64,000 nucleotides of DNA from Nitrososphaerota archaeon (GCA_041641305.1 JBEPYN010000002.1:352001-416000); one strand, 5' to 3'; counted from the stretch's first letter, positions 58,087-58,323 are shown. Program-made: numbers and translations. The notes: generated by a model from the sequence alone, not told the origin.

Positions 58087-58323
58087 TGTCAACAAGTTGA
58101 CAACACTACAAACCTTTTTGTAGCTACTCTTGCTTGGCGTTATTCTGTCAACATGTTGACGGAGCAGGTACCTCATTGTTTCTACGGTGGTTGTCAACTT
58201 GTTGACAGTTTGTTTTTTAGCTATTTATATGGAACTTTGTGTCAAGCCTGTCAACTTGTTGACAGAATATCCTTAAACATGAGTAGATACAAAAATCATT
58301 GTAGATTTGTCAACATGTTGACA
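58087..58323. repeat. Cluster of five 16-bp palindromes TGTCAACWWGTTGACR in an AT-rich non-coding gap
   Basis: Starts at 58087, 58146, 58192, 58249 and 58308; unique intervening segments of 43, 30, 41 and 43 nt. Confidence 0.92.

Follow-up and report, generated by a model that had tools for sequence, protein, structure and literature searches.

A palindrome array with conserved spacers as the putative control region of an island-wide regulon in a Nitrososphaerota archaeon

The DNA analysed here, called the window in the following, is a stretch of 64,000 nucleotides from a Nitrososphaerota archaeon (GCA_041641305.1, JBEPYN010000002.1:352001-416000), which corresponds to C2:352001-416000 of the 1.66-Mb, four-contig genome. 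Downstream of an adhesin-like operon and upstream of the genes for a 175-amino-acid (aa) protein, a 106-aa protein and an Alba paralogue, it holds a 320-bp gap (58029-58348) with a G+C content of 39.4% against about 52% for the genome, and in this gap lies array 1, which consists of five copies of the palindrome TGTCAAC-NN-GTTGACA at 58087-58323 (237 bp). An initial annotation, made from the sequence alone, had described five regularly interspaced palindromes in an AT-rich gap, and the architecture that it gave was confirmed: the palindromes start 59, 46, 57 and 59 bp apart and leave spacers of 43, 30, 41 and 43 nt, and the changes among the copies are confined to the two central bases (AA, AT or TT) and the last base (A or G). 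With one mismatch allowed at most, the core GTCAACNNGTTGAC occurs 13 times in the window, and since only 0.06 occurrences are expected from shuffled sequences, chance is excluded.

The repeat was also said to occur singly elsewhere, and single copies were indeed mapped (Table 1). There are 18 exact 14-bp cores genome-wide, all of them within 81 kb (C2:354026-435449) and none in the other 1.57 Mb, and sites with two or three mismatches stay at background level throughout, including the sequence outside the island to which the window belongs. Array 1 is the densest node in this network of 18 identical palindromes. When each array is counted once, the sites form 12 loci, ten of which are intergenic, although intergenic sequence makes up only 10% of the island (binomial p = 6e-9). 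At all ten an A/T-rich TATA-like box is found 10–24 nt away from the palindrome, toward the next gene, and the start codon follows usually about 25 nt, at some sites up to about 75 nt, from the box. The distribution of the sites and their promoter-proximal position are direct observations; the spacing between site and box, as judged from sequence, is that of an upstream operator or activator site in archaea. Among the units headed by such sites are the pilus/FtsZ-like operon (below the site at 42943 it comprises a 227-aa open reading frame (ORF), a T2SSE ATPase, T2SSF and a tubulin/FtsZ-like GTPase), a run of DUF6757, Alba, CHRD and GtrA genes, the adhesin-like operon to the right of the array, the genes for a thioredoxin-like protein and an M50 protease (at array 2, see below) and a parB-like operon. 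Two sites are intragenic, one in the interior of an 837-aa ORF and one at the overlap of a 748-aa and a 218-aa ORF. The palindrome at the latter junction (C2:435435-435450 = L001:19435-19450) is kept within coding sequence in four elements, its counterparts being L105:5377-5392, L107:6406-6421 and L087:9258-9273, and no promoter-like box lies near it.

Since most copies lie just upstream of TATA-like boxes, gene control is indicated first, ahead of the centromere that the initial annotation had proposed. The reading that we favour, with a probability of roughly 0.6, is that the array is a cluster of predicted binding sites for a dimeric, sequence-specific DNA-binding protein and serves as a control region of an island-wide regulon. 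The dimer would recognise the palindrome and, at the single sites, would sit just upstream of the B recognition element (BRE) and TATA box, and the activity of about ten transcription units would be set in common. In the arrays, several dimers would bracket a TATA box and a second motif and thereby form a control region of high occupancy.

Table 1. Coordinates of the elements of array 1, its proximal gene and the single palindromes, counted from the first letter of the window
Feature	Position	Strand	Remarks
P1, TGTCAACAAGTTGACA	58087..58102		copy closest to the 175-aa gene (start 58028, minus strand)
Spacer 1, module a inverted	58103..58145	-	GTAGCTACTC at 58120-58129, the reverse complement of GAGTAGCTAC
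P2, TGTCAACATGTTGACG	58146..58161		
Spacer 2, 30 nt	58162..58191		sole spacer without counterpart in other arrays
P3, TGTCAACTTGTTGACA	58192..58207		
Spacer 3, module c	58208..58248		TATA-like box TATTTATAT at 58223-58231; kept in array 2 and congener G009
P4, TGTCAACTTGTTGACA	58249..58264		
Spacer 4, module a	58265..58307	+	GAGTAGATAC at 58281-58290, 16 nt past P4, then TACAA/TTGTA hairpin
P5, TGTCAACATGTTGACA	58308..58323		25 nt past the stop codon of the 161-aa gene (58349-58834, minus strand)
Proximal promoter region of the 175-aa gene	58029..58086	-	A/T-rich TATA-like run 58051-58063, about 25 nt before the ATG at 58028
175-aa ORF, no Pfam family	57501..58028	-	downstream of the array; followed by 106-aa membrane ORF and Alba paralogue
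Single copy	2025..2040		between XPB-like helicase gene and 81-aa ORF; TTATTTA 18 nt gene-ward
Single copy	4692..4707		upstream of 176-aa ORF
Single copy	30487..30502		ATTAAAT 17 nt downstream; 26 nt further, start of 78-aa ORF
Single copy	31117..31132		distal end of pilus/FtsZ-like operon, upstream of 70-aa ORF; variant at orthologous place in G003
Single copy	42943..42958		upstream of pilus operon; variant at orthologous place in G003
Single copy	55159..55174		20 nt upstream of ATTTATCC; heads plus-strand run of DUF6757, Alba paralogue, CHRD and GtrA genes
Single copy	62518..62533		within 837-aa surface-protein ORF; no TATA-like box near

The spacers had been called unique, which holds for spacer 2 and fails for spacers 1 and 4, with their shared inverted core, and for part of spacer 3. 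Spacer 1 contains, in inverted form, the core of spacer 4, GAGTAG[A/C]TAC with a CTACAA/TTGTAG hairpin (in spacer 1 the hairpin, CTACAAA/TTTGTAG, lies at 58106-58123 and the motif 16 nt from P2), and P1-P2 and P4-P5 therefore form inverted arms of 74 nt that are 81% complementary; array 1 as a whole has a dyad symmetry centred on an A/T-rich stretch. Part of spacer 3 is found again, with 23 of 24 nt matching, in array 2, which lies 19 kb away and consists of three copies 60 and 59 bp apart (C2:429127-429262). Moreover, four palindromes with the same period of about 59 bp form an array in G009, the nearest complete congener, which has one single copy besides. The order palindrome, module c, palindrome, module a, palindrome is common to array 1 (P3-P5), array 2 and the G009 array (P2-P4), with a mean column identity of 82%, so that conservation of the spacers is directly seen. 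Module c carries a TATA-like box with a palindrome on either side; module a carries GAGTAG[A/C]TAC and then a short hairpin, the motif standing 14–18 nt from the palindrome in eight of eight copies from four sources. The composite of palindrome and GAGTAG-type motif is also present in G009, L030 and L107, and array 1, array 2 and the G009 array are equally oriented relative to their flanking genes, with the 3' end of a gene, the array and the 5' end of the next gene in this order. The TATA box between palindromes, together with the second motif GTAG[A/C]TAC, argues that the 237 bp act as a multi-operator control region.

In the metagenomic relative L107 there is an array of three units with a period of 97 nt, each unit consisting of palindrome, TATA box and GAGTAGATAC; like array 2 of the present genome, this array precedes a thioredoxin-like gene, and the succession of palindrome and TATA box is clearly oriented toward the downstream gene. 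In the congeners G002 and G003 the site, in a variant form, often occurs in pairs that enclose a TATA box, with the two sites 71–73 bp apart. With periods of 59, 72 and 97 bp, there is no constant helical phase, which speaks for sites occupied by dimers independently of each other and not for a nucleoprotein structure with wrapped, phased DNA. When public sequences were scanned for paired sites, the result was one contig of a Thermoproteota metagenome-assembled genome (L030) with both the palindrome and GAGTAGATAC. The other paired-site matches, mostly from high-GC Actinomycetota and Planctomycetota, were all bacterial and without the second motif, and were taken as unrelated operators. Pairs of GTCAACNNGTTGAC 28–50 nt apart are found in many contigs of Actinomycetota, Planctomycetota and Bacillota (L012-L075) with no GAGTAG motif, where they are presumably operators of unrelated bacterial regulators.

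The conservation of the spacers also bears on the alternation of repeat and spacer, which resembles a CRISPR array. The initial annotation had dismissed a CRISPR, rightly in that the repeat is 16 bp long and nearly perfectly palindromic while CRISPR repeats have roughly 23–50 bp, and had offered instead a guide-like RNA array processed at the hairpins. A short transcript could start from the TATA-like box within the array. Variation of the spacers between strains was expected of such an array; the spacers found are conserved modules, shared by the two arrays here and one congener array. They gave no matches in phage and plasmid collections and, in the host genome, none beyond the second array. 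Furthermore, no Rfam family matched at 57000-59500, no cas gene was seen among the ten ORFs flanking the array, and compensatory changes in the hairpin of module a are absent from the copies examined. A guide-like or CRISPR-like RNA array is therefore close to refuted, above all because the spacers are conserved and have no phage or plasmid matches.

The sites themselves have drifted among the relatives. G002, G003 and G004 carry the variant GTCAA[A/T]-NN-[A/T]TTGAC, which in G003 is present at both ends of the orthologous pilus/FtsZ-like operon, and in G002 beside the thioredoxin-like gene and at the ORF junction that matches C2:435436 (748-aa/218-aa). The conservation at orthologous positions is a direct observation, and because the position is kept while one base per half-site is changed, it is as expected of functional sites that co-evolve with their protein. 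In number, 18 sites of the present genome compare with about 14 in G003 and about nine in G002 (both counted with the looser variant pattern), five in G009 and two in G004 (one contig examined). In G003, a multi-copy unit is found at six or more contig ends (L090, L091, L093, L094, L097, L095) and probably breaks the assembly there; in it, the end of a thioredoxin-like gene is followed by the variant palindrome, a TATA box, several hundred nt of conserved non-coding leader and a gene of an unannotated family of about 281 aa. This family has four copies in the present genome, and no palindrome was found near them.

As to the protein that reads the palindromes, the most likely binder is a ParB-like protein of the island, a tentative assignment to which we give somewhat less than even odds. 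Its ORF of 335 aa (C2:431634-432641, minus strand) matches PF02195 (ParB_N) with 57.7 bits at a cut-off of 26.3. Its best PDB sequence matches are Noc and Spo0J, with an alignment that extends into the helix-turn-helix (HTH), and the nucleotide-binding boxes, with the GxxR motif of the ParB CTPase fold, are recognisable at the sequence level (GSRRLYA vs GERRWRA in Noc; ENVTQK vs ENLQRE). The AlphaFold (AF2) model is confident at residues 7-150 (predicted local distance difference test, pLDDT, 80-93), which cover the N-domain and HTH, and Foldseek matches this part to Noc, ParB and KorB (8qa9, root mean square deviation 2.5–3.0 Å, 143–149 columns) and the protein also to a pNOB8-like ParB N-domain (5k5d); after the HTH follow a disordered linker and a zinc-ribbon C-terminal domain. 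An exact palindrome precedes the parB-like gene by about 90 nt and stands 11 nt before TTATAAC. The ParB-like fold with its motifs and the site in the gene's own promoter are results of the analysis; binding of the sites by this protein, clamping dependent on cytidine triphosphate (CTP) and any sign of regulation are inferred.

The metagenomic orthologues on L105 and L107 (79% and 68% identity) likewise have an exact palindrome at the same promoter position and another at the end of the 749-aa ORF, and no cognate palindrome was found on contig L108, which carries an orthologue of 36% identity. For the three elements that have the exact site, the recognition helix is predicted as S-x-EE-[IV]-R-[RK]; it reads SHETIRLA in G002 with its variant site and is different again in the distant (36%) orthologues. 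Between palindrome and start codon, the leader (C2:432642-432731 = L001:16642-16731; L105:8093-8182; L107:9167-9256) holds a block GTCCGCACTTTCA-GGCCTTCTCTGGTTA, near-identical in the three elements, whose proteins are 68–79% identical; this block might serve as a further binding site or as an RNA element.

Several points weigh against this protein as the binder and against a ParB-type system in general. The parB-like gene is present in the present genome, L105, L107 and G002, so that the cognate protein is not found wherever the sites are kept. G009 retains five perfect cores with neither a ParB-like orthologue nor its C-terminal domain, no parB-like gene was found in G004, and G003, with about 14 variant sites, has only a 266-aa protein that shares the C-terminal domain and has another N-terminus. 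The genomes with many sites (the present one, G002 and G003) thus have a protein with this domain while those with few (G009 and G004) do not, and the sites of the latter two may be relics. In G002, moreover, the promoter of the 48%-identity orthologue has a different palindrome. The C-terminal domain gave no recognisable fold (best Z 2.7), the gene next after parB-like encodes a RadA/KaiC-like ATPase and no ParA, and no match above cut-off to PF01656 or PF13614, as expected of a ParA/MinD-type ATPase, was obtained in the island. Finally, ParB-domain proteins adjacent to the ups pilus in Sulfolobales are described as nucleases (PMC11868833), and the island protein could therefore process DNA instead of regulating genes.

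Four other proteins were considered as the binder and rejected. A 105-aa protein is found together with the sites, but in two AT-rich genomes its homologues are encoded in site-free regions; its only family-annotated look-alikes are weak (0.81 by features to a DUF3276 cluster, a template modelling score of 0.38 by structure to a PC4 cluster). The paralogue of TFB that has only the cyclin core is found only in the present genome and G009 and is missing from G002, G003 and G004, and the DUF6757 zinc proteins, which have homologues in G002 and G003, are lacking in G009 and G004. The fourth, a ParB/Spo0J-like protein of 269 aa encoded in the core genome, occurs in site-free genomes and is absent from G003 and G004. 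This last protein (C1:838753-839559, minus strand; L110:450-1259) has an HTH and no adjoining ParA, matches Spo0J (1vz0) with E = 1e-12 over residues 10-146, and was found in eight of 11 congeners searched.

The same distribution leaves room for a conventional archaeal transcription factor unrelated to ParB, for example of the winged-helix-turn-helix (wHTH), ribbon-helix-helix or zinc-finger type, whose operators the palindromes would be and whose strongest control region would be the array; this alternative differs from our reading solely in the identity of the binder. It draws on the distance of the sites from the TATA-like boxes, which is usual for archaeal activators or BRE-occluding repressors, on the sites of G009 and G004, which stand without a ParB-like protein, and on small candidates adjacent to sites, namely the two DUF6757 proteins, a TrmB-like wHTH protein and an 81-aa/63-aa pair. 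However, no candidate is present in all site-bearing genomes, as the absences of DUF6757 and of the TFB core given above show and as the wHTH protein was not found in G009, and the two conserved intragenic sites have no promoter nearby. We consider such a factor unlikely, although it deserves to be kept in mind.

With the ParB/Noc-type protein as the binder, CTP-bound clamps would load at the arrays and slide from there over the neighbouring operons, and the protein would silence or activate the operons of the island; the GTAG[A/C]TAC motif could bind a partner protein, and the arrays are perhaps also centromere-like sites. Such a clamp would accommodate the two intragenic sites, unexplained by promoter models, as extra loading sites. 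There are precedents on bacterial conjugative elements, where sliding clamps of KorB silence (PMC13768133) and those of BisD activate (PMC12409273). In its most specific form, the proposal is that a ParA-less archaeal ParB/Noc-type CTP clamp switches a whole island for pili and DNA transfer (Ups/Ced-like and similar to a type IV secretion system (T4SS)), with the arrays as loading zones of high density and GTAG[A/C]TAC bound by a partner that locks the clamp or co-activates; in this form it is possible but doubtful.

The presence of a ParB-like protein also brings back the centromere, here understood as a true partition site (parS- or sopC-like) of an excisable or once-extrachromosomal element, with the single copies as auxiliary loading sites. 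The 16-bp palindrome is parS-like, the regularly spaced inverted repeats recall sopC, some sites are intragenic, as is often the case for parS, and the claim of the initial annotation stands insofar as a ParB/Noc-type HTH protein is encoded in cis with a site in its own promoter. Against a centromere, no ParA/MinD-type partner was found in the island; in addition, no tyrosine integrase was found in the genome, no evidence of an excised form was obtained, the period differs among relatives (59, 72 and 97 bp), and most sites track promoters. A centromere proper is consequently improbable.

The other half of that claim, an origin, found little support, since both Orc1/Cdc6 genes are far off (Cdc6_C matches at C2:65 kb and C2:660 kb only) and array 1 has no flanking replication gene. 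The palindrome, moreover, does not look like an origin recognition box. It could nevertheless be supposed that the arrays are origins of replication or transfer (oriV- or oriT-like), with the palindrome read by an initiator or by a nicking ParB-domain nuclease together with the adjacent helicases. The dyad symmetry of array 1 around its A/T-rich centre would suit an origin, and array 2 abuts the gene for an MCM-like AAA+ protein, within a conserved cluster of ParB-like, RadA-like and MCM-like genes beside Hel308; ParB-domain proteins have been proposed as DNA-processing nucleases in the Ups/Ced context (PMC11868833). The GC skew changes sign near 410 kb, close to the array, but this signal is too weak to be read as an origin, the ORFs scanned showed no Rep or relaxase family, and two arrays 19 kb apart with ten single sites, mostly at promoters, speak against an origin. 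We regard this possibility as quite improbable.

The surroundings of the array are a variable island of roughly 100 kb with patchy G+C content, at whose left edge, at about C2:346.8 kb, synteny with the congeners ends; G009 shares only about 13 kb of it, at another chromosomal place. The island encodes a type IV pilus operon with T2SSE and T2SSF and an embedded tubulin/FtsZ-like GTPase, T4SS-like ATPases (VirB4-like and HerA/VirD4-like), Hel308, a RadA/KaiC-like ATPase, an MCM-like AAA+ protein, a restriction-modification (R-M) methylase, an XPB-like helicase, paralogues of HerA and NurA, a ribonucleotide reductase and the cyclin-core-only TFB paralogue, and two Alba paralogues and two Cys/His proteins of the DUF6757 type adjoin the array. 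A similar set, co-regulated via a shared promoter motif, is known from the Ups/Ced DNA-exchange genes of Sulfolobales (PMC5817253, PMC11868833). No match to tyrosine integrases (PF00589), not even of the XerA type, was found in the whole 99%-complete genome, while all control genomes gave matches, and no tRNA gene lies at the island ends examined.

On such variable ground, the palindromes might be taken as recombination sites or module boundaries for cassette exchange, with the arrays as scars or hot spots. The two arrays are directly oriented and bracket 19 kb of low-GC cargo including the R-M methylase, the G009 array stands exactly at the place of a 4-kb insertion in the present genome, the thioredoxin-like gene is inverted beside a site in G002, and the GtrA gene is relocated beside a site in G003. 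But no recombinase was found, break points at operon boundaries are expected anyway, and the fixed distance to the TATA-like box and the conserved spacer modules would be left unexplained, which makes recombination sites highly improbable.

Some further features of the island were noted. The GTPase gene (34931-35947, minus strand; PF00091, 34.7 bits) lies between genes for two large membrane-anchored proteins in the pilus operon, an arrangement kept in G003 with a GTPase of about 63% identity (L088:15492-16484, L104:6277-7272). The TFB paralogue (23222-23836, minus strand, 204 aa) has two cyclin repeats without zinc ribbon or B-reader, adjoins the HerA-like and NurA-like paralogues, and is 80% identical in G009 (L004:10539-11156), whose four-palindrome array lies just past its 3' end. 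The two paralogous Cys/His proteins, with a weak DUF6757 match, bracket array 1 (55218-55457, plus strand; 58841-59038, minus strand); both start with an MRCQW motif, and one of them is the first gene after a single palindrome. Just inside the left island edge, a sequence of about 50 nt (C2:347074-347125; L003:11074-11125) has at least ten scattered matches in G009 with 84–97% identity and may be a small dispersed repeat or an element like a miniature inverted-repeat transposable element; an adjoining piece of 84 nt (L003:10802-10885) has one match in G009.

A literature search for the exact motif gave nothing relevant, and the literature searched held no counterpart from Archaea in which sites close to promoters, arrays with conserved, promoter-like spacers and a ParB/Noc-type HTH protein without ParA occur together. 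Dispersed ParB-type palindromes on conjugative elements are already known in bacteria, whereas chromosomal ParABS systems are described as generally absent from Archaea (bioRxiv 10.1101/2025.10.10.680097), and the switching on and off of archaeal islands for conjugation or DNA exchange is little understood. If the proposal is true, it would be the first regulatory network of the KorB/BisD type in Archaea, would extend the ParB-CTP clamp logic to archaeal TATA/BRE promoters and would offer a handle on the regulation of pilus-mediated DNA transfer in hyperthermophiles. The system is compact, with one 16-bp site at 12 mapped positions, two arrays and a candidate binder that has its own site, and natural variants of both site and recognition helix exist in related elements. 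Should the link to ParB fail, the network still defines the regulon of another archaeal regulator.

Among known systems, KorB with its operator OB on the IncP-1 plasmids RK2/RP4 is like the present case in that a ParB-family HTH protein is encoded on a conjugative element over which a short perfect palindrome is scattered, with some copies adjacent to promoters and some far from them. Here, however, the host is archaeal, TATA/BRE promoters take the place of sigma-70 promoters, no homologue of IncC/ParA or KorA was found, the sites also form arrays with conserved spacers, the binder is putative and one genome keeps sites without the protein. The F-plasmid sopC, made of tandem 43-bp repeats that each have a 16-bp inverted repeat bound by SopB, shares the regular spacing of 16-bp inverted repeats in a non-coding stretch and the ParB-family (candidate) binder. 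It differs from the array, which has two alternating conserved spacer modules (one with a TATA-like box), is partly inverted, has just 3–5 copies with a period that varies among relatives and comes with no SopA/ParA found. In pNOB8 and the Sulfolobus conjugative plasmids with an AspA-ParB-ParA cassette, the wHTH protein AspA reads the site, ParB binds DNA non-specifically and ParA is the motor; an archaeal conjugative element, a protein with a ParB N-domain and a palindrome upstream of the cassette are in common, while the island protein has a ParB-type HTH of its own and no AspA or ParA was found. BisD with bisS on ICEclc of Pseudomonas putida is a ParB-like CTP clamp that activates transfer-competence promoters (PMC12409273), and it has in common with the island the setting in an integrated transfer element, the absence of ParA, an extra non-ParB domain, parS-like sites and about ten transfer promoters under common control. 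In contrast to the two bisS of ICEclc, the 18 sites of the island include two arrays; the extra domain of the island protein is a zinc ribbon without recognisable fold, and no counterpart of BisC was identified. Lastly, the UV-inducible motif of the Ups/Ced system (PMC5817253) is also a short cis element common to promoters of pilus, DNA-transfer and repair genes of a crenarchaeon, in a set that likewise includes type IV pili, a VirB4-like ATPase, a ParB-domain protein and a helicase along with a TFB paralogue. The UV-inducible motif, however, has six nucleotides, is not palindromic and lies within core promoters chromosome-wide, whereas the site described here is a 16-bp palindrome upstream of TATA-like boxes in one island.

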